Part shown: one piece after another, positions 23,392 through 53,855 of the stretch | Position numbering within the stretch: the stretch's first letter is position 1 | Layout: the number at the start of each line of letters is the position of its first letter | Origin: Pirellulales bacterium | GTDB lineage: Bacteria; Planctomycetota; Planctomycetia; Pirellulales; Pirellulaceae | Direction of reading: 5' to 3' | DNA length: 64,000 nucleotides | Assembly (NCBI GenBank): GCA_046349935.1 | Contig: JAXMBK010000012.1 | Location: 77,556 to 141,555 of the forward strand | Translations under genes and position numbers: made by a program | Notes under the pieces: model-generated | What the model was told of the DNA's origin: nothing | The model's input: only the letters and a program-made list of their open reading frames with translations | Databases searched by the model: none

Positions 23392-23406
23392 TGCTCACCA
23401 GCCTAT

Positions 23407-29983: not shown

Positions 29984-30943
29984 GAAGCATCAAGCGAGGC
30001 CGGGTCACCTGGTGCAACTTGGCTATGCTTGAGCGATGCCGCCTTGGGCACCGTACTCACTTTTCATCCAGTCTTTGAATCCTGCCCGGGTGGATGCTCC
30101 ACAGGTGTACGTCGGACATTTGTCCCACGAACCGTTTGCGACCGACGTGACGACGCGAACGCGGTCTGAAATGCGGCACGTCGCCGATTGGGGTGCGCGA
30201 GCGCAGCTTCGCAAAGCTCCGGCCGCAACTCGCCCGCCATCGCCACCAAGGCGTTGCTCCGCAGACGTCGCCCTGAGAAAGTTCGTTACGGGGAGAGCGA
30301 ACCAACGGCGTCCCGCAGGACTTTCTTTGCGCCCTGTCAGTCGCCCACATCATCGTCGAGGCTGGTAGGTCGCGGCTGGCTCTGAAGCAGACGCAACAGT
30401 CAGTACCGTCCGGCGCGAGAAGGATCGCTCGGCACACGACGCCGACTAATAACCATGTCCATCGTTGCGTTTTTGGCTGCGGTTTCGCGTCGCGCGTACC
30501 GCTTGTCCTCTTCCTGTCCCTAGCTCCTCTGGCCGACGGGCCCGAAGTCCGTAACATTCCCCCTGGCCGCCCTGACCGTGCGCTGGCAAGACGCCTCCAT
30601 GCATTCCCCCCATGTGGAATCTCGCTCGAATCGTTGACGCACCCCGCTGAATCAGGGTACTTTTGTACCGCCATGCTTCGGCTGCACGTTGATTGCGAGA
30701 CGCGTTACATGACCTGCGGCCGCGAGCGTTGCCCCACCCCCTGGATCCCTCCGCCCTCCGCGAATCAACGACACGTCCCGACCTGTGACACAGGGAAGGT
30801 CCCAAGCCTTTCCTGGTGTTCATGGTGTGGGAGCGACGCTTCACGCACAAATGGCAGCGAAGCGACGCAGGTCCGCCATGGGCGAGTCCGAGATCCACGG
30901 TCGGTCCCAATTTGCAACGGCTCTCACCAACAGGAACTAGCTG

Positions 30944-33058
30944 ATGGCCAATGTTCACGTCCAAAACGAGCGATGGGTGGTGACGAGCACAGACTTCGCG
31001 ACCCGCATCACGATTCCGGATCTCGACGGCTACTTTCGCAACTTGCCCTTAATCAGCAGTTTTCCTAAGGCGAAGACGCTGGTGATCGAACCGGGAACCC
31101 GGGCGTTCGTCATCGAGGACGATCTTTTGGCAGGGGAATTGCCGCCCGGCGCTTACACCTTGGAGTCGTTCGTGGAGCGGCTGCAGTTCTGGCGGTCGAA
31201 ACAATCGACGGTCGTGCTGGCCCGCCAGGAAGACGTCCCGCTGGAGGACGCCGTCGCTGGAATTCTCAGCCTCGAAGGCGTAGGCGTCGATCTCCGCTAC
31301 CGCTGGACCGTCCAGATCTCCGATATCTTGCTGTTCCTGACCAATCTTTTCGGGGCCCGCACCGCCCTCTCGATTCCGGAACTGGACGGCCTACTCCAGC
31401 CTCTTGTGCGTCAAGCGGTCTACGGGATCGTCGGGGCGACCGGCTACGACCAGATCCGCGACTCGCAGTTTGCGGCGCAGCTTGCGGATGCCCTTCGCTC
31501 GCAGCTCGACGTTCGTCTGCAGCGATACGGTCTGCGATTCGTGGACCTGCAGTCAGTTGCGGTCACGTGCGACGATGCCGGACTCCGCGAGCGACACGGG
31601 GAAGCTTGGCTCGGCTGGCGCGAAAACCAGTTGCAGCGAGCCTTGCATCACGTTGAGAACGATCAGCTCGCCGCCCGACTGGAAGACTATCAGCAAAAGG
31701 TGGCGGTCCGGAAACAGCTGCGCGACGTCGTCGCTTCCGATCGGCTGAATCAGGCCCAATCCAAGGAGGACTTTGCGGCCGCGATCTTCGCGCTCGATAA
31801 GCAGCAGTTGCTCCGCCAAGAAGAGCGGGACTCGCTGACCCAAGCCTACGAGGAGCGCAAGGAAGACCAAGCGCAGCAGCGGGCGCACCTGCTGGCCACG
31901 ATCGACCTGCAACGCGAGCGGGAACTGGAGGAGCTGCGCATCGAATTGGACCATGCGCTCCGTCAGAAATCGCTCCTGCAAGAACTCGAGCTCACGCGTT
32001 TGACGCAGACGCGAGAAGCCGAACAGTGGCGGCATGAGCTGAATCGCGAGCGCGAAGCCGCCACGCATCGACGGGATGAAAAACGGGTGGCGCTGCAGGC
32101 CCGCTGGGAGCGTCTGCGCGACGCTCGCCAGCAGCAGCGCAGCGACCAGTGGGAAGCCGTCCTGCATGAACAGAAGCTGGAGGAAGTGCGTCTCGATCTT
32201 GAGCTCAAGAAGGCGGAACGAGCTCGCCAAGTCGCCCTTATCCAAGCCGAATTGGAGAGCCGGCTCGCAGCCGAGAAATACGAACTCCACCAGCGTCAGC
32301 AGGAATGGGAAGCCGCGCAGCGCGAGAAGCAGAGCCACAATCAACTCGAGCGACTGCAGCAAGTCCAGAACATGAATCTGCAGTTCGCCGAACGACAACA
32401 GCGGATGCAGGCTGAATTGGAGAAGCTGAAAGCGGACGGCGAACATCAACGAGAGATCGAGCGACTGCAGGCGATGAGCACGCTGAGTTCTGACGCGTTG
32501 ATCGCCACCGCCGCGATGGGGAACGCGTCTCTGCTCGCCGACCTCAAGAAGACGGAGTTGGTGAAAGACGGCAATGACGGCGGTGCAGCCCAACAAGCCG
32601 AAAAACTAAACGAAGAACGGCAACGCCTCTACGAACGTCTGAACGAGACGGAACGGGCCAAGGCCGACGCCATCGCCGAAGCATACAAGCTGGCCATGCA
32701 GGCTCAGCACGCCAGCGTGAGTCAGATGATTGGCGGGCTCGCACAAGCGGTAGCGCCGCCGGCGGGAGGCCTGTCGCCCTTTACACCTGCTGGGATGGCC
32801 CCGCCCGGCCCGCCCCCGCTCACGCCCGCGGCCGCGACGTGGTATGTGTCGCTGAACGGGCAACAGTCGCCGCCGCTGCCCCTCGCCCAGTTGCATCAGT
32901 ACATCCAGAGCGGCCAAGTGCAGGCCGCGACCCTGGTTTGGCGAGCCGGGTTGCCAGCGTGGTTGCCAGCCGGCCAAGTGGCGGAGCTCGTGCCCTATTT
33001 TGGGTCGTCCGGGGGGCCGCCGCCGCTGCCGGCCGGAGCGGACGCGAAGCCCAGTTGA
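30944..33058 (+). CDS. SPFH/flotillin-like protein with long coiled coil and C-terminal DUF4339 (GYF-like) domain
   Basis: N-terminal band-7-like segment, ~350 aa of E/R/Q-rich heptads, and a C-terminal block (WYVSLNGQQSPPLPLAQLHQYIQSGQVQAATLVWRAGLPAW) matching DUF4339. Confidence 0.55.
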   Translation: MANVHVQNERWVVTSTDFATRITIPDLDGYFRNLPLISSFPKAKTLVIEPGTRAFVIEDDLLAGELPPGAYTLESFVERLQFWRSKQSTVVLARQEDVPLEDAVAGILSLEGVGVDLRYRWTVQISDILLFLTNLFGARTALSIPELDGLLQPLVRQAVYGIVGATGYDQIRDSQFAAQLADALRSQLDVRLQRYGLRFVDLQSVAVTCDDAGLRERHGEAWLGWRENQLQRALHHVENDQLAARLEDYQQKVAVRKQLRDVVASDRLNQAQSKEDFAAAIFALDKQQLLRQEERDSLTQAYEERKEDQAQQRAHLLATIDLQRERELEELRIELDHALRQKSLLQELELTRLTQTREAEQWRHELNREREAATHRRDEKRVALQARWERLRDARQQQRSDQWEAVLHEQKLEEVRLDLELKKAERARQVALIQAELESRLAAEKYELHQRQQEWEAAQREKQSHNQLERLQQVQNMNLQFAERQQRMQAELEKLKADGEHQREIERLQAMSTLSSDALIATAAMGNASLLADLKKTELVKDGNDGGAAQQAEKLNEERQRLYERLNETERAKADAIAEAYKLAMQAQHASVSQMIGGLAQAVAPPAGGLSPFTPAGMAPPGPPPLTPAAATWYVSLNGQQSPPLPLAQLHQYIQSGQVQAATLVWRAGLPAWLPAGQVAELVPYFGSSGGPPPLPAGADAKPS

Positions 33059-33150
33059 TGCATTCTCGGCGTCGTCAATCGACGCTCGTCGTCAGCCCCA
33101 CTCCTCGGAGGCCGGGCCCCCGGACCTCCTCGCCGTCGTGAGAGATAACC

Positions 33151-34737
33151 GTGGAACAGGGACAAGCCGCTTCGATACTCTACAGCCAGGTGAAGAGTCA
33201 GTTGCGACCCGAGGCAACGCTGGCGGAAATCGAAGCGCAACTGCAGGCCGTGGCCGTCAGCGCAAACCTTGCTGCTGGGGTAATCATCGAAGTCATGGCC
33301 CGGTTCCAACAGGATCATCAGGCGATTTCAGAGGGGGCCACGCCTCGTCTACTCGTGAATTGGGGTGAGCCCCCCCGCATGGGACATCAGGTGCGTCCCG
33401 AGTTCAGCCTGATTTGCCCAGGGTACAACGCGCGTCCCGAAGTCGTCGTCGCCGTCGACCGCCAGCTCGATCACGAAGCTCTTGATCTCCGACCGCGAGT
33501 GCAGGAAGACGCGCCCGGGCTCTGGACGTTCAGCGTTCCCTTTCAGATGACATCGCAGGGCCTCGATTGTTGCCCCGGTCAGTATTTGATCGACGTCGCA
33601 GTCTCATTCCGCGACGGCCCCGCGTCTCGCCCGCGCTTTTATCGGTGTCGGATTCGCCTCCATGTCACCGGCGGCGGCGCTGGCAGCGAGGGCGGCGTCC
33701 TGGAGATCGATAGCGACGGTCAGTCGGTCGTCAATCTGCAGGGGTACAACCTGAAGCAGTTCTCGCGCGTCATCCTCAAGGGCGGTCAAGCCGGCATCAT
33801 CAACGTCGCGCAGCCGCTGGGAGAGAGTGCGACCGCGGCCCCCGCCCTGCCGCACCAGCCGGCGACCGCCTTTGCGTATCAGCTACGGGTAGATGCAGAA
33901 AAGGAGGCCCGCCTGCCGCGGCTCGCGCCCCGTTCGCGGCCCCGCAGTAAACTGGAGAAAGCCGGGCTGTTCTTTGCGGACGGGCGGCGAACGATCGTCC
34001 TGGCGAAACGAAAAATCACCTTTGGGCGCAGTCGCGGTAACGACGTCGTGCTCCGCTTCTTGCCATCAGACAAGGCGAACGACGATTATTCGCGAAACAT
34101 CTCGCGCACGCATTTCACGGCCGAATTGACGGCGGAGGGCATCGAACTGCGGGACGAGTCGCGCAGCGGTCTGGAGTTCAACTATGCGGTGGTGCGCGAG
34201 CGACAGGTCATACCCGCGACGTATGCCGGGGATGTACTGCCCGTGGAACTAGGCGTCACGGGAACCGTCCCGAAGAAGTTCGCGCTCGAGATGACGTTGT
34301 TCGCGCCCGATCATCGGTTCGAACAACCGCACGAGCTCGAGTATTGGGATGAACTCTACTGCGAGATCGTGGGCGGCCGCCGTTCGCGGCTAGCGCGGGA
34401 GGCCGTCGAGGTCATGCTGAATGCGGTGCGCTATGACCGGGCCGAAAATCTCGCGGGCGAGGAGTCGTACGTCCATCTCGTGCGGGAAGCCCTCATCGGC
34501 GGTTCCCGCAGCCAAGCGGCGATCGTCCTCCACGATGGCGTCCCCCAACCGCAAGCTCGTTTACTGCACATGGATGAATCTTTCTGGCTGGAACCCCTTC
34601 CTGGCTCTCAGCCGATCAGCATTGACGGGGTCCCGGCGGACCCCCGTTCCCTGCACCCTTTGTCGCCGGGAATGCAGCTGGTGTTTGACACCGAAAGCCT
34701 ACGCTTCGACCTTCCAGCTCAGCGGTACTTGGACTAA
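33151..34737 (+). CDS. FHA domain-containing protein
   Basis: FHA signature ITFGRSRGNDVVL...ISRTHFTAE...GIELRDESRSGLEFN in the central region. Confidence 0.7.
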   Translation: MEQGQAASILYSQVKSQLRPEATLAEIEAQLQAVAVSANLAAGVIIEVMARFQQDHQAISEGATPRLLVNWGEPPRMGHQVRPEFSLICPGYNARPEVVVAVDRQLDHEALDLRPRVQEDAPGLWTFSVPFQMTSQGLDCCPGQYLIDVAVSFRDGPASRPRFYRCRIRLHVTGGGAGSEGGVLEIDSDGQSVVNLQGYNLKQFSRVILKGGQAGIINVAQPLGESATAAPALPHQPATAFAYQLRVDAEKEARLPRLAPRSRPRSKLEKAGLFFADGRRTIVLAKRKITFGRSRGNDVVLRFLPSDKANDDYSRNISRTHFTAELTAEGIELRDESRSGLEFNYAVVRERQVIPATYAGDVLPVELGVTGTVPKKFALEMTLFAPDHRFEQPHELEYWDELYCEIVGGRRSRLAREAVEVMLNAVRYDRAENLAGEESYVHLVREALIGGSRSQAAIVLHDGVPQPQARLLHMDESFWLEPLPGSQPISIDGVPADPRSLHPLSPGMQLVFDTESLRFDLPAQRYLD

Positions 34738-34779
34738 CCCACCAGCGGACCGATGGCTGGCTGATGGCGGCCGGTTGCG

Positions 34780-37623
34780 ATGCGGAGACAGGCGATGCGC
34801 GGCGACACGGAAGGCAGTTTGGGCGACGACAAAACGTCTGCGGGCATGGCACGTTCGGCGCACCACGCGAACAGCCTTGGCTCGGATCCGACGCACACCG
34901 GCGGCACGGCAGACTCGACACCCAGTCTGGGCGACCAGACGACGCTCGGCGGTGAATTGCTCGACGACAAGGACGACGACAAGGACCTGGCCCACGAGGA
35001 GTTCGAGGTCGTTGACCTGGGAGCACGCTACCGAGTCGAGAAATCGCTCGGCCAAGGCGGCATGGGCGCGGTCGTGCTAGCGACCGATACACGGCTCGCT
35101 CGCCGGGTCGCGATCAAACGCATCCTTGGAACGGCCGCCGGCCGCAGAGCTGCGGTCTCGCGGTTCTTGGCGGAGGCCAAGGCGGTTGCCGCCTTAAATC
35201 ATCCCAACATCGTCCAGATTTACGACTATGGTCGCGCCCCGGACGGCCCGTTCTTGATCATGGAGTACGTCGACGGCGATACCTTATTGGCTCGCTGTCA
35301 GACCGGCCCTATTCCCGTGGAGCAAGCGATCGAGCTGACTTGTCAGCTTTGTGACGGACTCGCGAAGGCGCATGCGGCCGGCATCGTCCACCGCGATATC
35401 AAGCCCGCCAACGTTCTCCTCACCGAAGACGGCCTCGCCAAACTCACCGACTTCGGTTTAGCCAAGGCCGAAGCCGCTGACCAGGGCATGACCATGACCG
35501 GTGCCGTGCTCGGCACGCTGGACTACATGGCCCCCGAGCAACGTCGTGATGCGTCACTCGTTGATGCGCGGAGCGATTTGTGGAGTCTCGCGGCGACGCT
35601 GTACCAGATGCTGACTGGCAAAAGCCCAAAGGTGATTCGCCTCCATGATCTGCCGACGTCCCTGCAGTCAGTCCTGAGCAAAGCGTTGGAGGATCAGCCA
35701 AAAGATCGCTACCAGACCGTACGCGAGTTCAAGGAAGCGTTGCGTGGAAAAACAAAAGGCTCTAGCAACCAGGCGTTGGTTGAAGACGCCGAGGACCTCG
35801 GCGAGGGCGTTTGCCCCTCCTGCCGCACCCAGAATGATCTGCAGCGGAAGTACTGTAAGAAGTGTGCCGGCTCGCTGCGAGTTGCGTGTTTGAAGTGCAA
35901 ACAGGAAATTCCGATCTGGGACCAAGTCTGCGGCCACTGCGGCGGGAAGCAACCGGAACTCGTCGCGGCAGAACGAGCCAGAATCGATGCCATGCGAAGC
36001 GAAGCGGAGACGCTCGCGGGCCAGTTGTCGTTCAGCCGTTCTCTGGCCTTGGCGCAGGAAATTGCGGCCATCACCGACCCTCGTCTGCTGCACCAAAAAA
36101 GCTGGGCGGAGACGTTCGTTCCAGAGACCGAGGCGGAGCATCATCGGCAAGTCGAGAACGCTGCTAAGCACTTGTCCGAAGCCCGCAAACACCGCGATGC
36201 CTTCGACTATTCGGCCGCGCTCCACGCAATCGAGTCGATTCCTGCGCCGCTGCGCACGAAGGAAATGCAAGAGCTTCTTGTTACGCTCAATAGCAACCTC
36301 GACGAATTGCGGAACCTGCTGAAGCTCATCAAGAATCGAATCGATGATCGAACGCTGGATGGATTGCTCCAGCCGGTTGAGCGGGCCCTTGAGCTCGATG
36401 GCAGCCGCAAGGATTTGCAGAAACTGCGTCAGCAACTGTTAGATCGAGAGGCGAAGATTACCGCGCAGTGCGACGCGGCGTTTTCCAACGCCGAAAGGCT
36501 GCTGGAACAGGGTAACGCGAAGGCCGCGTTTGCTGCGGTCGAAAACGTGCCGCCCAGTCGCATGACCGCCTCCCGTTCTCAATTACGCAGTCGCTTGCAA
36601 GCGATGTCGACCGCGGAAACAGAGCTTTCGCGACAACTGGCCGCGGCAAAATCAGACGGCGTTGTCGATGCTCAAGAGGCGCTCGACTTGTTGTGTTCGA
36701 CGATCCGCTGCCTGAGGTTGAATCCGCGGCACTCAACGGTGCAGCAGTTGCAGGCGGATCTCTTCAAACGATTGCAAGCCCTGGCGGAACGCCCCTTGGA
36801 TATTCACTTGAGCCAGACAGATGCCCAGGTGCTGGCGCAGCTACCCGTCGACGTGCTGGCGACACTACCGCTCGAATTGCTTCGTCAGTTGCCGGTTTCC
36901 AAGTTCATCTCGATTCCCGGGGTCGACTTACTTCGGCTTACCCCAATCCAGAACAGTATCGGCATGCAATTGAAGCTGTTGCCCGCAGGTATGTTCACCA
37001 TGGGAGAGGGCGCCCAGGCTGATCGAGTCACGCTCACGTGGCCGTTTTTCCTTGGTGTGTATGAAGTGACGCAGGAGCAGTACCAGCGGGTGATGGGGCA
37101 TAACCCTGCAAACTTCAAAGGACCGGACCATCCCGTCGAGAACGTACCGTGGGATGACGCGGTGAAGTTTTGCCGCAAGCTGTCGGCGTTACCGGCCGAG
37201 AAGGCTGCGGAGCGGGTTTATCGATTGCCGACGGAAATGGAGTGGGAGTACGCCTGCCGGGCCGGGACGACGACGAAGTTTAGCTTCGGGGATAACGATG
37301 AGCAGCTGGGCGAGTACGGGTGGTTTAACGACAACTCTCGCGGAACAACACACCCTGTCGGTCAAAAGCAACCGAATCCCTGGGGCTTTTATGACATGCA
37401 CGGCAATGTGTATGAGTGGTGCCAAGATTGGTACGGCGAATTCCCCAAGGGCAATGCGACCAATTCAACTAACGAACTACGGGCCTCGAGTTGCGGCAGA
37501 TACCGGGGCGGCGGTTGGAACAGCAGCTCCACGAATTGCAGGGCGGCGAGCCGCAACGCGCTCCCCCCGACGTTCTGCGAGAACTTCAATGGCTTTCGTG
37601 TGGCGCTGAACTGCACTGGATAG
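34780..37623 (+). CDS. Ser/Thr protein kinase with zinc ribbons, helical repeats and C-terminal FGE-sulfatase domain
   Basis: Hanks kinase motifs GQGGMGAV, AIKR, HRDIKPANVLL, DFGLA, APE. CxxC...CxxC zinc ribbons. C-terminal FGE motifs (RLPTEMEWEYACRAG, GFYDMHGNVYEWCQDWY, RGGGW). Confidence 0.85.
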   Translation: MRRQAMRGDTEGSLGDDKTSAGMARSAHHANSLGSDPTHTGGTADSTPSLGDQTTLGGELLDDKDDDKDLAHEEFEVVDLGARYRVEKSLGQGGMGAVVLATDTRLARRVAIKRILGTAAGRRAAVSRFLAEAKAVAALNHPNIVQIYDYGRAPDGPFLIMEYVDGDTLLARCQTGPIPVEQAIELTCQLCDGLAKAHAAGIVHRDIKPANVLLTEDGLAKLTDFGLAKAEAADQGMTMTGAVLGTLDYMAPEQRRDASLVDARSDLWSLAATLYQMLTGKSPKVIRLHDLPTSLQSVLSKALEDQPKDRYQTVREFKEALRGKTKGSSNQALVEDAEDLGEGVCPSCRTQNDLQRKYCKKCAGSLRVACLKCKQEIPIWDQVCGHCGGKQPELVAAERARIDAMRSEAETLAGQLSFSRSLALAQEIAAITDPRLLHQKSWAETFVPETEAEHHRQVENAAKHLSEARKHRDAFDYSAALHAIESIPAPLRTKEMQELLVTLNSNLDELRNLLKLIKNRIDDRTLDGLLQPVERALELDGSRKDLQKLRQQLLDREAKITAQCDAAFSNAERLLEQGNAKAAFAAVENVPPSRMTASRSQLRSRLQAMSTAETELSRQLAAAKSDGVVDAQEALDLLCSTIRCLRLNPRHSTVQQLQADLFKRLQALAERPLDIHLSQTDAQVLAQLPVDVLATLPLELLRQLPVSKFISIPGVDLLRLTPIQNSIGMQLKLLPAGMFTMGEGAQADRVTLTWPFFLGVYEVTQEQYQRVMGHNPANFKGPDHPVENVPWDDAVKFCRKLSALPAEKAAERVYRLPTEMEWEYACRAGTTTKFSFGDNDEQLGEYGWFNDNSRGTTHPVGQKQPNPWGFYDMHGNVYEWCQDWYGEFPKGNATNSTNELRASSCGRYRGGGWNSSSTNCRAASRNALPPTFCENFNGFRVALNCTG

Positions 37624-37973
37624 ATTGGCGAGTCTTGGGAATGCAGTCGTAACAGACCGTGCTCCTGCCTGATTAGCGAAACCTTATCCCGCAACCGCGA
37701 AATACTCAACTACCGCCTTAAGATTTACCGGCTCCAGGAACCCGAAAAACTAAACAAGTAACCTCAGCGAAAGAAGTCAGGTCGACTCTCCAGCGAAGCT
37801 AGCCAGTCTGGACAAAACTTCATTAAACTCTCGGTCCCCTGAGGACATTGAATCGCGCTGCGGGATCTCTGGAGTACCTCCCACCCGTACCCTGTACTGC
37901 CACTATTCCAGCCAGAAATCCCCGTCACGGTTCCTGTCCACGGACAACAACCTTAGGCCGAGACCACTGATCC

Positions 37974-40900
37974 ATGACGCAGAATCACGACCCGAGCCTG
38001 GGCGACCAAGAGACGCGCGAGCGCGTCGGTCAGCCCGTCGAGCCCGTCGATCGCAGCCTCGGCGATCAGTCGACTCACGGCGACCGCGAAGCGTCGTCGC
38101 TTGGCGGTTTATCGGGAATAATCGTGGCACACGACGGCCCCATCGACGTCGTCGATCTGGCGGCTCGGTATGTAATCGAAGGGCCTGTCGGCCAGGGCGG
38201 CATGGGCGAAGTGCTGCTGGCGACCGATACGCGGCTCAAACGCAAAGTCGCCATCAAACGCGTCCGCGGAGCGATGGCGACGAACCAAGCTGCTCTTGCC
38301 CGTTTTGCCACCGAAGCACAGGCGATCGCCGCCCTGAGCCATCCGCACATCGTGCAGATCTACGACTACGGGCGCGACCAGGACGGCCCCTTCTTGATCA
38401 TGGAGTACGTCGACGGCGGGAGCCTACTCGATCGCTGCCAGACCGGTCCAATTCCCCTTGAGCAAGCGATCGACCTGACCTGCCAGCTCTGCGACGGACT
38501 CGCCAAGGCTCACGACGCGGGCATCATCCACCGCGACATCAAGCCCGCGAACATTCTGCTCACGCAGGATGGTACGGCGAAGCTGACGGACTTTGGGCTC
38601 GCGAAAGCCGAATCGACCGACACCAGCATGACAATGGCAGGGGCCCTACTGGGTACGTTGGACTTCATGCCGCCGGAACAACGCCGCGACGCGTCGCTCG
38701 TCGACGCTCGTAGCGACCTGTGGAGCCTCGGAGCGACGCTCTATCAGATGCTCACCGGCAAGAGCCCGAAGGTGATTCGCCTCCATGAGCTGCCGAAGTC
38801 GCTGCAATCAGTCCTAAGCAAAGCGTTGGAGGATCGACAGGAAGCTCGCTACCAAAGCGCACAGGAGTTCCGGGAAGCACTGCGAAACTCGCACATGACG
38901 GCGTACGACTTTTCTGGAGCGATGATTCCCCCCGCCGGAGAATGCCCGAAGTGCCGCACAAGAAATGAAGCGTCGCGCAAGTTCTGTCGGGAGTGTGCGG
39001 CCTCCTTACGCGTCAACTGCCTGCAATGCGGTGAGGGAATTCTCGCCTGGGAAAAAATCTGCGGTGAATGCGGCGGCAACCAAGCAGATCTCGTCTCAAG
39101 TCGAATTGGGGAGCTTCTTACCGAGTGCAGACGAGCGGAAGCGCTTCGAAGTGAACATGCGTACGATGATGCGATAAGCATCGTAGAGCCGATCGAGTCA
39201 CTGGCGGACGAACGTTTTGCACAAATCAGGACATGGGCAACAGACTTCCTTTCGTCGACTAACGCAGAGCGGGACCGGCAACTTCAACTCGCTCAGCAGC
39301 ATTATTCAGACGCTCAAAGGCATCGAGATGCCGTCGACTATCTCGCTGCGATCTATGAGATGCAGAAGATTCCCGTTCCGTTGCGATCCACCGAGATGGT
39401 CGCATATCTTCAGCAGCTTGAATCCGAGCGAGTGGCTGAATCGGACCGGCAGCTGTTTGCGGAAGCGAAACGGCACAGGAAGAGATTCGACTACCAGTCT
39501 GCCATTCAAGCCATAAAGCAGATTCCTCCTTCTCGACGATCTCGAACCGTGGCTGCCTATCTCATCCGGCTACAGTTCGATCAAGCGGAAGCTCAGCAGA
39601 CGCTCAAGAAGATTGAGGAAAAGATCTCGCAGCGTGACCAAGTCGGTCTTCGAAAACTCGTCGCCCGGGCACTGACGTTATGCGGCGACGACGACGGCCT
39701 ACGCGACCTGTTAACACAACTTGACGATGAAGCGTTTCAAAAGGCTCGAACGAGGGCGGAGTCATTTCGTGCAAAGTACGAATACGAGGACGCGTTGATC
39801 GTCGCTCGTAAGGTAGCAACCAAGGCCGGCGGGTCTATTAGCCATCATCGAGAGTGGGCTGAGGAATTCCTGACGTCAACGAAGCTAGAGTGGGAACAGC
39901 AGAGAAAGTCAGCATCGCAGCGGTTCGAGTTGGCTCGAAGGTATCGGGAGGAGTGCGATCTACAGGCTGCTGTTCAAGAGTTGGAGCGGATTTCTCCTGC
40001 GCTGCGTACGAAAGACATGCTCGCCTTCCTCGATCAGCTTCAGCTAGACTGTAAGAACAACAACAAACTCCATGACGCCCGTACATTAGCGGAGTCCCAT
40101 CGCACGCAGCACGCGTATGAGGCGGCAATGAATGTCGCCCAAAGTGTCGTGACTGCGGCAGGCGACCTCTTCCGCCATCATCGCGAGTGGGCCGAAGAAT
40201 TCCTGTCGTCAACAAAGGCAGAGTGGGAGCAGCAAAGAGAGTCGGCATCGCAACGGTTCGAGTTGGCTCGAAAGTATCGGGAGGAGTGTGACCTACAGGC
40301 TGCCGTTCAGGAATTGGAGCGGATTCCTCCGCCACTACGTACAAAAGACATGGCCGCCTGTCTCGACCAGTTGCAAACTGAGCAAGCCGAAGCCGAGCAA
40401 CTAGTCAGGATCATCGGAGAACAAGTCTCACAGGGCAAGCAACATGGGCTACGGCAACTTGTCGTACGGGCCTTGCAACTGCTGGGCAACAAAAGTGATC
40501 TATGCGAGTTGCTGACCAGGTTAGACCACGAGGAGTTACATCAGGCCCGAACGCGGGCCGAGTCTCTTCGTGCAAAGCACGCCTTCAAGGCGGCGCTGTC
40601 CATTGCGAGAAAGGTCGCGAACAAGGCTGGAGATCAGTTCCGGTGGCATCGCGAGTGGGCCGAGGCGTTTCTGTCGTCAACAACGGCAGAGTGGGAGCAG
40701 CAGAAAGAGTCCGCATTGCAGCGGTTCGAATTGGCTCGAAAGTATCGGGAGGAGTGTGACCTTCAGGCTGCCGTTCAGGAATTGGAGCAGATTCCTGCTG
40801 GGTTGCGTACGAAAGACATGGTCGCCTGTCTCAATCAGCTGCAAACTGATCAGGCCGAAGCGGAGCGACTGCTCAGAGAGATCCGGGCACAAGTCGCAGA

Positions 40901-42611
40901 GGGCCGACAGGTCGGCCTGCGAAGCCTCGTTGTACGAGCCTTGAAACTAGTGGGTGACAGAAGTGATCTACTTGAGTTGCTGACCAAGTTAGACGCCGAA
41001 GAGATCCAAAGAGATCGAACCCAGGCAGAGTCTCTTCGTGCACAACACGCGTATGACGCCGCGATTTATGTCGCTCTCAGGATCGCGAGCACGGCTGGTG
41101 ATCAATTCAGAGAGCATCGAGAATGGGCCGAGGCGTTCCTGTCGTCAAAAGCGGCAGAGTGGGAGCAGCAGAGAGAGTCGGCATTGCAGCGGTTCGAATT
41201 GGCTCCAAAGTTTCGGGAGGTGTGTGACCTTCAGGCTGCCGTTCAGGAGTTGGAGCGGATTCCCGTTGAAATGCGATCCGAACCAATCGACGCTAACCTC
41301 GCACAACTTCGAATTGAGCACGCTGACGCAACTAATCTGAGCCGCGCAATCGAGCAGCAGTTTTCACAAGCAAACCGAGTGGGCCAACTCGAACTTGAGA
41401 CGGTGAATGTAAAGGATCGAACCTCCCTGCGGGCCGCGAACTTTCGGCGAGCCTTACTTGTCGGTTCAACGATCGCGGCGATCACATTTACTGCAGTAAC
41501 GAGCGTTTTCTTGATTCGCTCGACGCAACGAGCATCGGCAGTTTCTCGTGCAATTCGGCAGGGACGATGGGACGATGCGTTGGCAATCGATCCGAGTAGT
41601 ACTCAAGCACTTCTTGGGCGAGCAAAACAACGACTGGATGGATCTGCGTCCGACTTGCACGAGGCAATCGCCGACTTGAATCGAGTCGCGGAGCTCGACC
41701 CGAACAACCGTCAGTTAGCGGATTTACGGGCCTTGGTGGTCGCGTGGGAGTCTCGTTTGGACGGTTCTAAAGCCTCGCAACAGTCGAACGGGCAACAACT
41801 GCCGACGCAAGAGAAGCAAGAAATCAAGACGCACTCAGAAAGCACCCCCCCGGCACAAATGTCCCCGCAGCAACTGCTCCAGCAACGGCCGCTGGTAAAC
41901 AGTATCGGCATGCAGCTGAAACTTCTTCCGGCGGGCACATTCATGATGGGCTCAGCAAGACCTGGCTCACGAGACACGCCTCGACATGTGACACTGACGC
42001 AACCTTTTTACCTGGGCGTCACGGAGGTTACTCAAGAACAGTTTAAGCGAGTGATGGGCAGCAATCCGTCCATCTCTGTTCGCGCACAGAATCCGGTTGA
42101 GAATGTGACTTGGGAAGATGCCGTCGAATTCTGTCGGCGACTATCGGAACTGCCCGAGGAGAGCAAAGCGCGTCGCATGTATCGACTCCCAACTGAAGCC
42201 GAGTGGGAGTACGCTTGTCGGGCGGGGACGACAACGGAGTACTTCTTTGGCGATAGCGGTGCGGACCTGGATCTTTACGCTTGGTACGAAGGTAATTCGG
42301 GCAAGATGGCACATCCGGTATGTCAGAAACAGCCCAACCCTTGGGGTCTGTACGACATGCACGGGAACGTGTGGGAGTGGTGTCACGACTGGCACGGCTA
42401 CCTATCGAGCAGCGAGACAGATCCTACGGGTCCGCCCAGCGGCATGGAGCGTGTCCTCCGAGGCGGCAGTTGGATCAACCCCGCGGCAAGTTGTCGGTCT
42501 ACGCTTCGATACTCGCGTGCTCCGATTCGCCGCGGCCCTCTCGATGGCTTCCGCATCGCTCTGACGCCGTCAAGTGACTCGGCTTACTTGATGCAGGAGC
42601 AACCCAAGTGA
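37974..42611 (+). CDS. Ser/Thr protein kinase with zinc ribbons, tandem helical repeats, TM segment and C-terminal FGE-sulfatase domain
   Basis: Kinase motifs as for 34780..37623. TM segment LLVGSTIAAITFTAVTSVFLI. C-terminal FGE motifs (RLPTEAEWEYACRAG, GLYDMHGNVWEWCHDWH, RGGSW). Confidence 0.85.
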   Translation: MTQNHDPSLGDQETRERVGQPVEPVDRSLGDQSTHGDREASSLGGLSGIIVAHDGPIDVVDLAARYVIEGPVGQGGMGEVLLATDTRLKRKVAIKRVRGAMATNQAALARFATEAQAIAALSHPHIVQIYDYGRDQDGPFLIMEYVDGGSLLDRCQTGPIPLEQAIDLTCQLCDGLAKAHDAGIIHRDIKPANILLTQDGTAKLTDFGLAKAESTDTSMTMAGALLGTLDFMPPEQRRDASLVDARSDLWSLGATLYQMLTGKSPKVIRLHELPKSLQSVLSKALEDRQEARYQSAQEFREALRNSHMTAYDFSGAMIPPAGECPKCRTRNEASRKFCRECAASLRVNCLQCGEGILAWEKICGECGGNQADLVSSRIGELLTECRRAEALRSEHAYDDAISIVEPIESLADERFAQIRTWATDFLSSTNAERDRQLQLAQQHYSDAQRHRDAVDYLAAIYEMQKIPVPLRSTEMVAYLQQLESERVAESDRQLFAEAKRHRKRFDYQSAIQAIKQIPPSRRSRTVAAYLIRLQFDQAEAQQTLKKIEEKISQRDQVGLRKLVARALTLCGDDDGLRDLLTQLDDEAFQKARTRAESFRAKYEYEDALIVARKVATKAGGSISHHREWAEEFLTSTKLEWEQQRKSASQRFELARRYREECDLQAAVQELERISPALRTKDMLAFLDQLQLDCKNNNKLHDARTLAESHRTQHAYEAAMNVAQSVVTAAGDLFRHHREWAEEFLSSTKAEWEQQRESASQRFELARKYREECDLQAAVQELERIPPPLRTKDMAACLDQLQTEQAEAEQLVRIIGEQVSQGKQHGLRQLVVRALQLLGNKSDLCELLTRLDHEELHQARTRAESLRAKHAFKAALSIARKVANKAGDQFRWHREWAEAFLSSTTAEWEQQKESALQRFELARKYREECDLQAAVQELEQIPAGLRTKDMVACLNQLQTDQAEAERLLREIRAQVAEGRQVGLRSLVVRALKLVGDRSDLLELLTKLDAEEIQRDRTQAESLRAQHAYDAAIYVALRIASTAGDQFREHREWAEAFLSSKAAEWEQQRESALQRFELAPKFREVCDLQAAVQELERIPVEMRSEPIDANLAQLRIEHADATNLSRAIEQQFSQANRVGQLELETVNVKDRTSLRAANFRRALLVGSTIAAITFTAVTSVFLIRSTQRASAVSRAIRQGRWDDALAIDPSSTQALLGRAKQRLDGSASDLHEAIADLNRVAELDPNNRQLADLRALVVAWESRLDGSKASQQSNGQQLPTQEKQEIKTHSESTPPAQMSPQQLLQQRPLVNSIGMQLKLLPAGTFMMGSARPGSRDTPRHVTLTQPFYLGVTEVTQEQFKRVMGSNPSISVRAQNPVENVTWEDAVEFCRRLSELPEESKARRMYRLPTEAEWEYACRAGTTTEYFFGDSGADLDLYAWYEGNSGKMAHPVCQKQPNPWGLYDMHGNVWEWCHDWHGYLSSSETDPTGPPSGMERVLRGGSWINPAASCRSTLRYSRAPIRRGPLDGFRIALTPSSDSAYLMQEQPK
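39590..41340 (+). repeat. intragenic tandem repeats (~470 bp / ~157 aa unit, 4-5 copies) within kinase gene 37974..42611
   Basis: Recurring units HREWAE(E/A)FLSST.AEWEQQ.ESA.QRFELARKYREECDLQAAVQELE.IP..LRTKDM seen at the nucleotide level near 39843, 40171, 40647 and 41116. Confidence 0.7.
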
Positions 42612-42734
42612 AGGGACGCTGTAGCGGACCTTTCGAAGTAGAATACGCAGAACATAGGTCTCACGTGCAGAGGAACAGGGCGAAGTGATTTAACCTCCGC
42701 AGTCAGCCCTCACGTTCCGCAAGCGAACAAGCCG

Positions 42735-45700
42735 ATGACTCAGCGAAGAAACCAAAGCCTGGGCGACCAAAAGACACACGAGCGTGTCGGTCAGCCCGTC
42801 GAGCCCGCTGATGGCAGCTTGGGCGAGCAGTCGACGTACGGCGACCGGGAAGCGTCGTCACTCGGCGAACTGTCGGGCAGGATCGTGGCACACGACAGCC
42901 CCATCGACGTCGTCGATCTGGCGGCTCGCTATGTGATCGAAGGGCATGTCGGCCAGGGCGGCATGGGTGAAGTGCTGCTGGCGACCGATACGCGGCTCAA
43001 ACGCAAAGTCGCCATCAAACGCGTCCACGGAGCGATGGCGACAAACTCCTCTGCCCTCGCCCGTTTTGCCACCGAAGCACAGGCCATCGCCGCCCTGAGC
43101 CATCCGCACATCGTCCAGATCTACGACTACGGGCGCGACCAGGACGGCCCCTTCTTGATCATGGAGTACGTCGACGGCGGGAGCCTCCTCGAGCGGTGCC
43201 GCGACGGTGCGTTGCCGGTGGAGCAAGTGATCACCCTCGCCTGCCAGCTCTGCGATGGACTCGCCAAGGCTCACGACGCGGGCATCATCCACCGCGATAT
43301 CAAGCCCGCGAACATTCTCCTCACCAAGGACGGCCACGCCAAACTCACCGACTTCGGCTTAGCCAAAGCCGAAGCCGCCGACCACGGCATGACCATGACC
43401 GGTGCGGTGCTCGGCACGCTCGACTACATGGCCCCCGAACAGCGTCGCGACGCGTCGCTCGTTGATGCACGGAGCGATCTGTGGAGTCTCGCGGCGACGT
43501 TGTACCAGATGGCGACCGGCAAGAGCCCAAAGGTGATTCGCCTCCATGACCTGCCGAAGTCGCTGCAGACGGTCCTCGGCAAGGCCTTGGAGGACGAAAA
43601 GGAAGACCGTTATCAGACCGCACGCGAGTTCAAAGAGGCGTTGCAAACCAGCCAGTCGCATAAGGCAACCGGCGTTGACTTGGCGGAAGGCGACTGCCCC
43701 CACTGCGGCGCGACGAATCCCACAAACCGTAAATTCTGCCGCGAATGTGCGAACTCGTTGGAGGTGCCGTGTCTTTCGTGTGCGCAAAAAATCCCCATGT
43801 GGGAGACTGTCTGCGATCATTGCGGGACGAAGCAGCGCCCGTTGCTTGAGCAACGTCGCCAGCAGATGGCCGCGCAGCAGTCGGAGGCGGAGACGCGAAT
43901 CAAGAATCACGACTTCGACGGCTCCGCGAAGCTGGCTATCGAATTGCGCGACGAATCGGACCTCCGTCTGCGACATCTGAGTGCTTGGGCAGAACGTTTT
44001 CTGACAGAACTCGACGAGACGCGGACTCAGGAGCTCGCGCGTATCGGCCAACTCGTGCGGGAAGCCAAGGCGCATCAGGCGGCATACGACTATGCCGCGG
44101 GTCTGCGCGCCCTCGAGACGGTGCCCGAGATTCTTGCAACCGCCAAACTTCGCGGACATCGGATGACCGTCAACGTCCTGCGAACGTCACTCCAACGTCA
44201 ATTGGACGAAGTCACGCGTCTTGAACGATTGATTCGCGACCGTATCGCCGCTCGCGAGCTCAACGACCTGCTGCCGGAAGTGAACCGACTGCTCGGCCTG
44301 CAACCCAGTCGTACGGATCTGCAACAACTGCGAGATCAGCTGACGCAGCGCGAGGCCAAGTTACGTGCGACTCGTGACGAAGCGTACGCTGCCGCGCTGA
44401 AGCTGTTCGCCGCGCACGACTACGAGAATTGCCTGAAGCAGCTTGCCAGGATCGACACCTCATTGGTCGATGAGGCTATCCGTAATCTGCAAGAGCGTGC
44501 AGGTGCTAGCCTTGAGCGCATCCGGAGCCTACGAAAGACGATCGCCGCTCGCGTAAGCGCAAAGCAGCTTGCGGGCCTGCTAGACGAGGTCGAAGAGTGC
44601 CTGAATCTGCAGCCTAACGCAACCGACTTGAAGAAGTTGCACGTCCAATTGAGAGCTCAATTTCGTCAGATCCAGCAGCGTGACAATGCCTTCAATGAGG
44701 CTCGGAAGCTTCTTTCCGCGGGAAACGCTATTGAAGCCATGAACCTGCTTTGCAATGTGCAATCGTTCGAGCTCACGGCCGAGCAGGTGCAGTTTAAGGC
44801 ACGGATTGAGGCAATAGTGGCAGCGGAACTAGAGTTGGCTGCGTTTTTGAAGGTGGCGGAGGCTGATGGCGTAATTGAACTGCAGGAAGCCATCGTGTTG
44901 CTGGACAAGGCCTGCGATTACCTGAAGCTGAATCCCCATCATGCGAAGATCACAAAGCTCCAGGAGGATGTTCTGAGGCGTTTACGGCAGTCCGCGGTGG
45001 CCGACCTGAACTCGCTTCCCATGAACGTCTTCCAGGTACTTGTTCGCGACATGTTAACGCGGGCCAAGGAAGTCGACAGACCGACGCTCTGGACATATTT
45101 GATTGAGGCCGTTGCCGGTCATGAGGAAAAGCTAGTCATCGTGATGCATTTGTCGCACGACATGTCTGACGAATCGCTCTCATTAGCCATCGAGCGTCTT
45201 GGGGCGAGCATAGCCAAGGTACCGCCGGAAAATCGTCGCGAGATTGGCTTAAGGTTTGTAGAGACGCTGAACTCGCTGCATCGTTCGCCAGCCGAGTTCA
45301 GTCTGCGTCTGGATCGTTTACGACGTGTACAACGATTGATCGGTGATTTGCAGGAGTCGCAGGCCGCGTCGGGCAATGTGGAGCCGTTTTGGTCGCCGAT
45401 TGAGCGTCTGAATGCTTGGTTGCGAGTCCCTGAGATCATCAAGCAAGCGGAGTGGGACGCCAGCCGCAACTCGATTAGGCGTGGCGAGACGCAGGGCGAC
45501 TTGCAGTATCGAGTGGGGAAGCAATTGGCGGAGACCCTGTCTCGCGCCTTACCTCATGGCACTCAAGGCGAGACGATGAGTACCCATGAGAAGGCGATGG
45601 CCATGTATCAGGTGCTGCAATACCTCCATGCCACGGAACTGGTGTCGATCGACTGGCGTAATCGCGCTGCTTACTATCTGGAGTATCATCATTGGCATGA

Positions 45701-47417
45701 TGCGGCCGGATCGCAGTCGGCCGGTAGTTACCGCAAGAATCTGTTGATGATTGCGGGCGGTTTCGGGGGATTGGTCGCCGTGTTGGTGCTCGGACTGTTG
45801 TTCTCGATGTCGAGCGACACAGAAGTCGCGAAAGGGAAGACGAAAGCTGCCGGCTCGAATCCACCTGCGACCAGCAATTCGACGACGAAGCCCGCAAGGG
45901 CGAATCTGCGAACTTCCGTCGTTCCGCCGCCTGTAAAGCCGCTGGTCGTTGCGCCGCCGACGGCGCCCCCGCCGCCGCCCGCGGGCGAGGCGGCGAAAGC
46001 GGAGCAGGATTTGAATAGTCTGCCAGATGAGCAGAAGGACAAAGGCGCCGCGTCGCAAGCGGCGAATGTCGAGGACTCAGCGCAACCCAAGCCGATGGGG
46101 CCGCAGATGCCGCCGCCGCTCGAGCGCGACTGGGAGATCGCCGAGGCACCGCTGAAGCCGGAAGCCAAACTGCCGATTTACATGCCGCTGCCGCCAGTGG
46201 GTGCGTCAGTCCAAGGATTCTCGCCAGAAACGCTGTTTCGATGGGTGATCTGGAGCCAAGAGAATGTGCGATTGGATGCGACGCCGTTAGTCGTGCATGG
46301 GCTCAAAGAAGCAACGGCGACGTGGCGTGCGACGAAGCCAGGTAAAACAACGGTGAGCGTCGAGGAAGTGCAAAAAATCCTAGACGGGACGCCCATTCGC
46401 GCGACGGATAGCGACGGCACCCAATACGAGATCGCCAAGTTCTTCGTCCATCGGGCTCCGGGGAAAGTGACTTTGGAGATGAAGCTGCTGAATGGCATCT
46501 CGCGCAATTTGTTTGAGATTCAGCGTCAGCTGTTCTTCTGCATCGTTGAATTCAGCGACACAACGGGAAGAAAACACTTCGTATCGCTAATGCCCCCCGC
46601 GGAAAGCGCCGCCGTTCCCGTGGATTGGGAGAGCATCAAGAATGGAAACTTGACAAGTTCGACGGGACTCGATGATCGCATCCTTCGCCCCGAAGCGGGA
46701 GGAGATTTGCAGCGGCTCTTTGTAGCTCGAGCCACGCTGAAATGGATTGATGACTCGACCGTAAGTGTGGGCGGACGATCGTGGCGCGAGGCGCCGGAAC
46801 ATGAAGAGTGGCCGTTGAAGTATGACGGAATTGACGGATTGGCCGAGGGGACCAAGCTGGGAGTTCGTTGGGCGGTGGATGCCAAACGAAGTTCGCTGTG
46901 TGTATACACGCCTAAATACAGTTCGCCAATGCTCGATCAAGAAATCAGTGATCTCAAGGCGCGCTCGCAGACGATCTGGGACGCTCGCCGCCAGTTGCGG
47001 AATGCCAAGATAGAAGAGAATGAAGCGAAGCGTATGAAGCAACTTCTGACGAGCATTGAGCGTCTTGCGAAAGTTTTGGATCTCCCTGTCAAGAAGTTTC
47101 CCGATCGGCCAAATCCAGCGGGGGCGGCTGACAAGCGGCGAGAAGTCGAAGCTGCTTTTTCCAAAGAAGTCGCTGAGTTTGACAAGTGGGTGGAATTCCT
47201 GGGAGGCAAGGCTGATGATTTGAAAGCGGAGATCGACGCGAAGATCGCCGATGCCATTCGCCGCAAGGCGGACGCCATGCAACGTCACGCCAACGCTGAA
47301 AAGACGCTCAAAGAACGAGCCAAAAGCATCGAAGCCGAACTGTTTCGCGTGGTGACGACGAAGGACGGACGACGGATTCGAGTGCCGGTAATGGTGTATC
47401 CCTCGAAGGACCTCTAA
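42735..47417 (+). CDS. Ser/Thr protein kinase with zinc ribbons, long coiled-coil region, TM segment and large C-terminal extracytoplasmic region
   Basis: Kinase motifs as for 34780..37623. TM segment LLMIAGGFGGLVAVLVLGLLFSM. First ~100 codons ~90% identical to 37974..42611 (tandem paralog). Confidence 0.85.
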   Translation: MTQRRNQSLGDQKTHERVGQPVEPADGSLGEQSTYGDREASSLGELSGRIVAHDSPIDVVDLAARYVIEGHVGQGGMGEVLLATDTRLKRKVAIKRVHGAMATNSSALARFATEAQAIAALSHPHIVQIYDYGRDQDGPFLIMEYVDGGSLLERCRDGALPVEQVITLACQLCDGLAKAHDAGIIHRDIKPANILLTKDGHAKLTDFGLAKAEAADHGMTMTGAVLGTLDYMAPEQRRDASLVDARSDLWSLAATLYQMATGKSPKVIRLHDLPKSLQTVLGKALEDEKEDRYQTAREFKEALQTSQSHKATGVDLAEGDCPHCGATNPTNRKFCRECANSLEVPCLSCAQKIPMWETVCDHCGTKQRPLLEQRRQQMAAQQSEAETRIKNHDFDGSAKLAIELRDESDLRLRHLSAWAERFLTELDETRTQELARIGQLVREAKAHQAAYDYAAGLRALETVPEILATAKLRGHRMTVNVLRTSLQRQLDEVTRLERLIRDRIAARELNDLLPEVNRLLGLQPSRTDLQQLRDQLTQREAKLRATRDEAYAAALKLFAAHDYENCLKQLARIDTSLVDEAIRNLQERAGASLERIRSLRKTIAARVSAKQLAGLLDEVEECLNLQPNATDLKKLHVQLRAQFRQIQQRDNAFNEARKLLSAGNAIEAMNLLCNVQSFELTAEQVQFKARIEAIVAAELELAAFLKVAEADGVIELQEAIVLLDKACDYLKLNPHHAKITKLQEDVLRRLRQSAVADLNSLPMNVFQVLVRDMLTRAKEVDRPTLWTYLIEAVAGHEEKLVIVMHLSHDMSDESLSLAIERLGASIAKVPPENRREIGLRFVETLNSLHRSPAEFSLRLDRLRRVQRLIGDLQESQAASGNVEPFWSPIERLNAWLRVPEIIKQAEWDASRNSIRRGETQGDLQYRVGKQLAETLSRALPHGTQGETMSTHEKAMAMYQVLQYLHATELVSIDWRNRAAYYLEYHHWHDAAGSQSAGSYRKNLLMIAGGFGGLVAVLVLGLLFSMSSDTEVAKGKTKAAGSNPPATSNSTTKPARANLRTSVVPPPVKPLVVAPPTAPPPPPAGEAAKAEQDLNSLPDEQKDKGAASQAANVEDSAQPKPMGPQMPPPLERDWEIAEAPLKPEAKLPIYMPLPPVGASVQGFSPETLFRWVIWSQENVRLDATPLVVHGLKEATATWRATKPGKTTVSVEEVQKILDGTPIRATDSDGTQYEIAKFFVHRAPGKVTLEMKLLNGISRNLFEIQRQLFFCIVEFSDTTGRKHFVSLMPPAESAAVPVDWESIKNGNLTSSTGLDDRILRPEAGGDLQRLFVARATLKWIDDSTVSVGGRSWREAPEHEEWPLKYDGIDGLAEGTKLGVRWAVDAKRSSLCVYTPKYSSPMLDQEISDLKARSQTIWDARRQLRNAKIEENEAKRMKQLLTSIERLAKVLDLPVKKFPDRPNPAGAADKRREVEAAFSKEVAEFDKWVEFLGGKADDLKAEIDAKIADAIRRKADAMQRHANAEKTLKERAKSIEAELFRVVTTKDGRRIRVPVMVYPSKDL

Positions 47418-47655
47418 CTGGGTGATTGACAGTCTTGGATTCGCAAGCGATTGCCATTCGGTCCAACCCGCCAAGCCTTCGACCAGACGCTCGTTGGACA
47501 AATGTCCCACTTGCCATAACGGGCCAGTGTGTGCGGCGAGCATCCAAGCGACCGGTGGGGACGCGAATCGCACGCCAGCTTGCTGCATTCCGCTGGATAT
47601 CGACAGCCCAGTTTCTCGGTAACGGTCGTCGAGCAGCGACACTTGGTTCGACACG

Positions 47656-51736: not shown

Positions 51737-51747
51737 GTAATTCTGCC

Positions 51748-53838: not shown

Positions 53839-53855
53839 AGCAAAGGAGCTTGTAG

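Follow-up and report, generated by a model that had tools for sequence, protein, structure and literature searches.

A conserved gene block of an SPFH-GYF protein, an FHA protein and sensor kinases in Planctomycetia, most likely a signalling hub

A 64,000-nt stretch of DNA from a Pirellulales bacterium (contig JAXMBK010000012.1, positions 77,556 to 141,555; hereafter the window) was analysed for a block of five genes at 30944-47417, which encode an SPFH-domain protein, a forkhead-associated (FHA) protein and three large Hanks-type Ser/Thr kinases. A preceding reading made from the letters alone (the sequence-only reading) had placed five co-oriented genes here, and the open reading frames (ORFs) agreed with it exactly, all on the forward strand:

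30944-33058, forward strand: SPFH, coiled-coil and GYF_2 protein, 704 aa
33151-34737, forward strand: FHA adaptor protein, 528 aa
34780-37623, forward strand: kinase 1 (K1), 947 aa
37974-42611, forward strand: kinase 2 (K2), 1545 aa
42735-47417, forward strand: kinase 3 (K3), 1560 aa

The intergenic gaps were, in order, 92, 42, 350 and 123 nt; the two longer ones, inspected by eye, held nothing remarkable, and Rfam and tRNA scans of the window gave no match. A promoter and terminator scan of 30000-48200, untuned for planctomycetes, gave counts no higher than shuffle expectation. Pfam searches bore out the naming of an FHA gene (7e-06) beside three Hanks-type kinases with zinc ribbons, since Pkinase and double zinc ribbon (DZR) matches were obtained in all of K1-K3. 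NCBI U0939_22330, from a Pirellulales metagenome-assembled genome (MAG), has the same sequence as the FHA protein.

The sequence-only reading had named a lack of conserved FHA-kinase synteny in related genomes as the observation that would speak against it. Gene order was compared in 45 other independent loci, collected by look-ups and by a scan of species-representative genomes; many are short MAG contigs, and certain MAG names ('Candidatus Kuenenia', 'Cyanobium') seem to stem from errors of binning. Synteny was found to be conserved. The SPFH gene was located directly upstream of the FHA gene, on the same strand, in 38 of the 39 loci with enough upstream sequence, and a kinase of the same family was present in 26-27 of the 38 loci that extend 1.5 kb or more past the SPFH-FHA pair (directly downstream of the pair in 17 of 35 loci). 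The SPFH-GYF gene is the tightest-linked partner of the FHA gene, and the block belongs to a module family conserved among Planctomycetia, one carrier of which, Neorhodopirellula lusitana (CAWLDM010000001.1, about 242-264 kb), is in culture; in both the FHA and the SPFH-GYF families, every source name that bears an organism is that of a planctomycete. The FHA family comprises 106 clusters at 90% identity. The triad is kept down to 31-35% SPFH identity (loci L008 and L009), where a zinc ribbon takes the place of GYF. In these two loci a small gene of the excisionase type (HTH_17) lies between SPFH and FHA (10160-10429 in L008, 7297-7539 in L009). The single exception to the adjacency, L037 (327-7968), has no SPFH gene upstream of FHA and carries four tandem genes in which another kinase family (30-35% identity) is paired with a domain of the formylglycine-generating enzyme (FGE) type.

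The kinases are the variable part of the module. Their number (from none visible to three) and orientation differ among loci, and their C-terminal domains were FGE, WD40, Sel1, GYF_2, DUF805 or none recognised, with FGE present in 14 of 38 module loci. Fusions were also observed: one protein (P0300) combines kinase, DZR and GYF_2, and a module kinase of locus L006 has a GYF-like N-terminus.

FHA domains are specific for phosphothreonine (pThr). In the AlphaFold2 model of the FHA protein (predicted local distance difference test score, pLDDT, 82.9), the N-terminal half consists of a three-helix bundle, a beta-sandwich (66-188) and a disordered linker (190-235), and the C-terminal half of a canonical FHA domain (~270-385) and a second, degenerate FHA-like domain (~425-520), the latter in line with a YscD-type FHA-like stretch in the Pfam search. 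The canonical domain has the FHA beta-sandwich fold with conserved Gly-Arg and Ser-x-x-His pThr loops, and the pThr-pocket residues G292, R293, S318 and R319 were invariant in 36 homologues. Its nearest structural match was the FHA domain of DgcB, solved with a bound tail peptide; FhaA and GarA were also among the top matches.

A candidate ligand was observed in the N-terminal tails of the three kinases, where the following motif copies are located:

34816-34944, forward strand: K1 tail motifs, SLGDDKT (34816), SLGSDPT (34873) and SLGDQTT (34924)
37995-38114, forward strand: K2 tail motifs, SLGDQET (37995), SLGDQST (38055) and a degenerate SLGGLS (38097)
42756-42875, forward strand: K3 tail motifs, SLGDQKT (42756), SLGEQST (42816) and a degenerate SLGELS (42858)

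Six-frame translation of the window yielded 7 copies of the strict form, SLG[DE]xxT, of which 6 lay within the first 60 residues of K1-K3. Under a looser definition, 106 of the 120 closest kinase homologues carried the motif in the tail ahead of the Gly-rich loop, with the consensus [DE][DE]x-S-L-G-D-[QE]-x-T-[FLY]-x-G. It was present in every module clade checked, the most distant ones included, and in none of the unrelated kinases of the same loci. Judged by sequence, SLGD[QE]xT[FYL]xG is a hallmark of the module kinase family. The acceptor position was Thr in 167 of 172 motif copies (97%), although Ser is commoner in the tails, and this strict retention fits the requirement of a pThr-specific FHA ligand. 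Each tail in the family has 1-3 copies, successive copies lie 17-21 residues apart, and the even spacing suggests bivalent reading. The proposal of the sequence-only reading that the SLGDQxT-like repeats are phospho-acceptor or FHA-docking sites is therefore strengthened, although not proven, by the family-wide occurrence, the conserved Thr, the fixed spacing and the invariant pThr pocket.

The 704-aa protein had been labelled SPFH/flotillin-DUF4339. Its GYF_2 domain (PF14237, formerly DUF4339) was matched by Pfam at residues 633-682 (1.5e-16; 60.3 bits against a gathering threshold of 25.8), and a profile match to the GYF structure of GltJ (7z3c) was obtained at 2.5e-08. The SPFH part was weak by sequence, with a sub-threshold Band_7_1 match (17.5 bits, cut-off 24). 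The AlphaFold2 model, built on 29 homologues, displayed an alpha/beta domain of the SPFH type (~17-210), helices (214-602), a disordered Pro-rich linker and GYF (633-686); the helical region spans ~390 aa, and proline-rich segments of the PPG type flank GYF_2. Foldseek comparison of the model with stomatin, prohibitin, HflK/C and flotillin gave E values from 3e-08 to 1e-04, and isolated SPFH domains superposed with TM scores of 0.7-0.79. Because the model matches these proteins, the label is correct, and the SPFH identity is confirmed at the level of modelled structure. The family contains 88 homologue clusters (90% identity), many with PF01145 or PF13421, the latter being Band_7_1, the family to which YdjI belongs.

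All three kinases retain the catalytic motifs GQGGMG (GxGxxG), VAIK, HRDIKPAN, DFG and APE/PPE, and by motif they are catalytically intact Hanks kinases (Pkinase E values 6.5e-45 for K1, 4.9e-47 and 8.4e-47 for the other two). Their domains, in residues from Pfam and hydropathy and in window coordinates for the parts discussed below, are as follows (TM, transmembrane):

K1, residues: Pkinase 84-283, DZR 345-388, helical repeats, FGE-sulfatase 733-942
36976-37605, forward strand: FGE-sulfatase-type domain of K1 (Pfam 4.7e-41)
K2, residues: Pkinase 66-266, DZR 324-367, TM 1160-1181, FGE 1317-1529
39738-41306, forward strand: four helical repeats of ~156 aa in K2 (repeat family D1)
41451-41516, forward strand: TM helix of K2, ALLVGSTIAAITFTAVTSVFLI (Kyte-Doolittle scan, mean 1.9)
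41922-42560, forward strand: FGE-sulfatase-type domain of K2 (Pfam 3.7e-46)
K3, residues: Pkinase 66-267, DZR 321-364, helical region, TM ~1003-1025, Pro-rich linker, orphan C-terminal domain
46122-47414, forward strand: orphan C-terminal ectodomain of K3 (residues 1130-1560)

The hydropathy scan showed no TM helix in K1 and one in K2, in agreement with the earlier guess that the FGE domain is cytoplasmic in K1, as the lack of a TM helix implies, and extracytoplasmic in K2. The orphan domain of K3 is likewise predicted to be extracytoplasmic, beyond the single TM helix. Its 431 aa matched 8 other cluster representatives at E<=1e-10 among 1.84 billion, and Pfam returned no family for it or its scanned relatives save for GAP1-N2 in one relative (P0322), a domain known from DO-GTPase conflict systems. 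Matches of the block kinases to PADLOC PD-T4-6 (up to 266 bits) covered the generic kinase domain only, and their NCBIfam MAD6 scores were 148-162 bits against a cut-off of 460. A further (fourth) DZR kinase, P0298, is encoded on the contig of the window.

K2 and K3 had been noted for nearly identical first ~100 codons and different C-termini, and this was observed: identity was 88% at the nucleotide level (37990-38289 against 42751-43050, repeat family D5) and, in amino acids, 85%, 87% and 57% over the first 100, 200 and 475 residues, respectively. The DNA similarity fell to background just past the kinase and zinc-ribbon region, the 3' ends are unrelated, and so is the upstream intergenic DNA. 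Locus L003 repeats the pattern, with two module kinases that have almost identical heads and different C-termini (2981-4201 and 11602-12117; in the window, 37974-38400 and 42735-43160). For this reason the "recent tandem duplication" of the sequence-only reading is retained as to the shared head and refined to the view that this head arose by duplication or gene conversion and was attached to sensor tails that differ. The sequences suggest paralogous heads under concerted evolution or gene conversion, and homogenisation perhaps keeps the tails matched to the single FHA adaptor. From the sequences we infer a common kinase head (acidic tail, kinase, DZR) with interchangeable ligand-binding ends, cytoplasmic or periplasmic according to the TM helix.

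Clues to the output came from a sister clade of the module (L039, L041, L043-L048), in which the gene immediately after FHA encodes a protein of 1100-1600 aa with Trypsin_2 and DUF2779. In L047 (2064-6950) the FHA protein is fused to Trypsin_2 and DUF2779 through a long Pro-rich linker, which could be a GYF ligand. DUF2779 has been counted among the 3'-5' exonucleases in the RNase H-like superfamily (PMC3985635). The output of the sister clade is probably a trypsin-like protease together with a predicted DUF2779 exonuclease, fused to or following FHA. Genes of the conflict type were also present at module loci, namely Peptidase_C14 (L006), AbiGi with an integrase (L007) and SAD_SRA-HNH (L002); L003 has transposases, and four caspase genes, an integrase and a split HipA lie in the window.

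The module is most likely a signalling hub consisting of a dedicated two-FHA adaptor, an SPFH-GYF scaffold and one to several sensor kinases. In the proposed course of events, a ligand at the variable sensor end would activate the kinase, which would phosphorylate the conserved Thr of the tail motifs, its own or its neighbour's; the FHA adaptor would dock on the phospho-tail, as the FHA domain of DgcB does on its tail peptide, and pass the signal to the SPFH-GYF protein, which may form an oligomeric assembly by analogy to stomatin, HflK/C and flotillin and whose GYF domain may bind Pro-rich segments. Several differently tuned sensors would in this way converge on one hub, and in the sister clade the downstream effector would be the protease-nuclease. 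Gene content, folds, catalytic and pThr-pocket residues, conservation of the motif, synteny and fusions were observed directly; the kinase-substrate pairing, FHA-tail docking, SPFH oligomerisation and biological role we infer from sequence. That SPFH, FHA and kinases form a functional triad is held with high confidence, and the full mechanism together with a leaning to threat sensing is given somewhat better than an even chance. The leaning, which favours a conflict or threat-sensing role over housekeeping, follows from the probable protease-exonuclease output of the sister clade. A bolder version, in which the module is an immune-like hub throughout Planctomycetia whose swappable, partly DGR-diversifiable sensors (DGR, diversity-generating retroelement) gate a destructive effector (trypsin-DUF2779, or here possibly the neighbouring caspases), is tentative and seems on the whole doubtful.

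Several observations weigh against such a hub or against its role in conflict. About 30% of the loci with flanking sequence showed no family kinase. Conversely, L010 has a family kinase with no pair in 10 kb upstream, on a contig that ends just downstream, and P0298 is a family kinase away from the pair; kinases so placed would fit one hub with several spokes. The residue at +3 after the motif Thr is Gly or Asp, which is not a classic bacterial FHA preference, and for this reason the binding partner of the tail could instead be the zinc ribbon, the beta-sandwich or the kinase. In the Kyte-Doolittle scan the SPFH-GYF protein had no hydrophobic segment or TM helix, so that formation of a membrane cage is only an analogy. 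The gene lists of L001-L010 contained no partner phosphatase.

The main rival explanation is that the module serves housekeeping signalling in the envelope or cell cycle, as a planctomycete counterpart of PknB/FhaA in which the kinases inform the FHA adaptor of envelope or nutrient state, SPFH organises membrane proteins and no conflict is involved. There is roughly one copy per genome, and identities of 33-62% across genera are compatible with vertical descent. Several module loci lie among housekeeping genes (IF3, NIF3, valyl-tRNA synthetase), which suits a cellular function better than defence. PADLOC and NCBIfam scans of the SPFH and FHA proteins returned no family except a partial match to the GltJ GYF domain, and neither a plasmid collection searched with the FHA protein nor a phage collection searched with the SPFH protein yielded a homologue. 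FhaA and GarA are, as stated above, among the top structural matches. However, no PASTA domain, cell-wall synthesis gene or PP2C gene was found in the block or the annotated loci; the sensor ends (FGE, WD40, Sel1, orphan) turn over fast both between and within genomes; FGE domains of the kind targeted by DGRs recur at the frequency given above; the sister clade includes a fusion of FHA with a protease and a predicted nuclease; and the neighbours include DGR, caspase and AbiGi genes. A housekeeping role is thus considered unlikely, though it is to be taken seriously.

A different explanation starts from the DGR of the window and holds that the FGE domains of the kinases are, or recently were, its kind of target, with the template repeat (TR) elsewhere in the genome, so that the block would extend the DGR system. 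The relevant features, with VR for variable region, are:

23407-24480, reverse strand: reverse transcriptase of the DGR
24371-24922, reverse strand: HRDC-domain accessory gene, at the position where many DGRs have the Avd gene
~23238-23409, reverse strand: TR
8299-8470 and 24986-25157, reverse strand: VRs, each at the 3' end of a caspase (Peptidase_C14)-FGE gene
8305-10356 and 24992-27529, reverse strand: the two VR-bearing caspase-FGE genes

The FGE domains of K1 and K2 fall into one subfamily with those of the two VR-bearing caspase proteins (43-49% identity; 49% for K2 against the protein at 8305-10356). The VR-equivalent segment of K1 keeps the RGGxW...C...GFRV frame, and several AAC codons of the TR appear by eye as NNC codons in K1. 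DGR-targeted proteins of the kinase-CLec type are known (PMC10907252). Moreover, a related DGR was found a few kb from the module in L048 (9376-11328), with a reverse transcriptase 52% identical to that of the window, an HRDC accessory gene, a TR at 9376-9499 and a VR at 11205-11328 at the contig end. A module kinase-FGE gene lies at the opposite end of that contig and is cut before the VR-equivalent region.

Comparison with the TR in codon register gave a different picture. Non-adenine mismatches numbered 1/83 for the nearby VR and 9/83 for the remote VR, 15 kb away, which may be in decay or may depend on a different TR, but 27/83 for K1 and 33/83 for K2. An adenine-tolerant scan of both strands of the window detected only the TR and the two caspase VRs, and a repeat search showed no other TR-like partner in the 64 kb. 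Together, the mismatch counts and the adenine-tolerant scan rule out K1 and K2 as targets of the local DGR, as the sequence-only reading had held. Most module loci show no reverse transcriptase in the sequence covered, and SPFH, FHA and kinase are linked without FGE domains in many of them. Diversification of the kinases from a TR elsewhere is accordingly judged improbable.

Catalytic FGEs have paired active-site cysteines, in the form Cys-x4-Cys after an RGGS motif. The RGGGW...C segments of K1 (RGGGWNSSSTNCRAASR) and K2 (RGGSWINPAASCRSTLR) contain a single Cys, as in the DGR VRs; K1 and K2 as formylglycine-generating enzymes were rejected because the paired cysteines are absent. By sequence, the two are FGE-fold binding domains rather than enzymes. 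In the block, lectin domains of the DGR type have been taken over as fixed kinase sensors, exempt from diversification, at either face of the membrane.

That five neighbours without a shared function came together fortuitously is very improbable: Pirellula-group genomes do carry about 20-60 Ser/Thr kinases (STKs; PMC11032199), but SPFH-FHA adjacency holds in 38 of 39 loci and the same kinase family recurs in the majority, over a sequence divergence of 31-62%, the motif is confined to the module kinase family, fusions tie GYF to kinase and FHA to effector, and the loci, at 33-62% identity, are not near-identical copies of one mobile element.

The hub reading was compared with known systems. As in PknB/FhaA and PknG/GarA, the module has a Hanks receptor kinase with an extracytoplasmic sensor and an FHA adaptor that would nucleate a membrane-associated assembly, and the PpkA-Fha1-PppA threonine phosphorylation pathway of type VI secretion systems (T6SS) is a further parallel. 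Unlike PknB/FhaA and the T6SS pathway, it has no PASTA or vWA sensor, PP2C, cell-wall or T6SS genes in the block and annotated loci; multiple kinases with swapped sensors, the SLGDxxT tail and the SPFH-GYF partner are features of the module and not of the actinobacterial and T6SS pairs. In DgcB of Bdellovibrio (PDB 6hbz/6hc0), FHA binds a phosphorylated N-terminal tail and both reside in one diguanylate cyclase, whereas here the tails are on the kinases and a separate two-FHA adaptor is linked to SPFH.

Cage-forming SPFH proteins (stomatin, prohibitin, HflK/C-FtsH, flotillin, QmcA and YdjI-PspA of B. subtilis) also have SPFH followed by a long helix; the module protein differs in the lack of a TM helix by hydropathy, the much longer helical region, the C-terminal GYF_2 and, in the clade of the window, the lack of a protease or NfeD partner. 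GltJ of Myxococcus (zinc ribbon and GYF) and ArnA/ArnB with the ArnC/D kinases of Sulfolobus differ from it in domain order and partners, and the module has no gliding or archaellum genes.

The Esr pathway of Actinomycetales, described in a preprint (PMC13622651), likewise leads from a variable sensor through a Ser/Thr kinase to pThr read by an FHA output protein; that protein has variable fused domains and the pathway is interpreted as defence (PMC13622651). Esr possesses MoxR/vWA, a phosphatase and separate surface beta-propeller sensors (PMC13622651), none of which is in the block; in the module the sensor is fused to the kinase and SPFH is the invariant partner. The DGR-linked FGS/FGE systems of Kaur et al. 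2020 (PMC7159879) and Doré et al. 2024 (PMC10907252) also place an FGE-type domain at the C-terminus with an effector or signalling domain N-terminal to it, and include kinase-CLec and caspase-CLec architectures beside DGRs; they differ from the module in that neither K1 nor K2 has an FGE domain that is a VR of the local TR and in that vWA-MoxR, STAND and EAD are absent from the five genes. The passages of these two papers retrieved by term search do not mention an SPFH-FHA pair. The ternary conflict core (MoxR, STAND or DO-GTPase with vWA, VMAP or GAP1; PMC7159879) was found neither in the five proteins nor in the other scanned ORFs of the window. The module works like the kinase-FHA pathways and borrows FGE/C-lectin sensors, yet it is not a member of any of the systems named. 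A planctomycete kinase survey (PMC11032199) reports WD40 and TPR fusions, and a term search of it returned no mention of zinc ribbons or FGE domains.

Other features of the window are listed below:

8305-10356, reverse strand: C14 and FGE (VR-bearing gene given above)
10560-11810, forward strand: C14 and PDZ
13750-15138, reverse strand: DUF4384 and C14
15196-17094, reverse strand: TGase_elicitor and DUF4384 protein
27558-28766, reverse strand: TPR protein, upstream of and co-oriented with a caspase-FGE target of the DGR
28763-29983, reverse strand: 406-aa protein with a sigma-70 region-4 match only
30057-30674, reverse strand: 205-aa ORF without a family match
47656-48708 and 48576-49043, reverse strand: HipA_C and Couple_hipA, two overlapping ORFs of a HipA-like toxin kinase, converging on K3
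49510-50706: tyrosine recombinase gene
51403-54617, forward strand: unrelated Hanks kinase K4 (811 aa, one TM helix), with a phytochelatin-synthase-like (PF05023) gene next
54642-55880: DDE transposase gene

The caspase cluster at 8305-17094, beside the DGR, looks like an apoptosis-like or conflict island. The genes at 27558-30674 are divergent from the SPFH gene. The hipA gene is either frameshifted or split. The last 300 nt of the recombinase gene are copied at 62386-62685 with 91% identity; the recombinase, this copy and the transposase point to activity of mobile elements immediately downstream of the block. K4 has neither a zinc ribbon nor the SLGD motif.

Bacterial kinase-FHA signalling is known already, and a module of SPFH-GYF, FHA and SLGD-tail kinases was not found described in the literature searched. 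The three-way linkage of kinase, FHA and SPFH, the evenly spaced, putative phospho-acceptor motif of the family and the hot-swappable sensor ends are apparently undescribed. The motif and the FHA domain provide a simple biochemical handle. Given the fusions of FHA to protease and nuclease and the neighbouring DGR and caspases, a new kind of defence or cell-death system gated by phosphorylation is a possibility, and the module offers a testable model of how STK-rich planctomycetes may funnel many inputs into one output.

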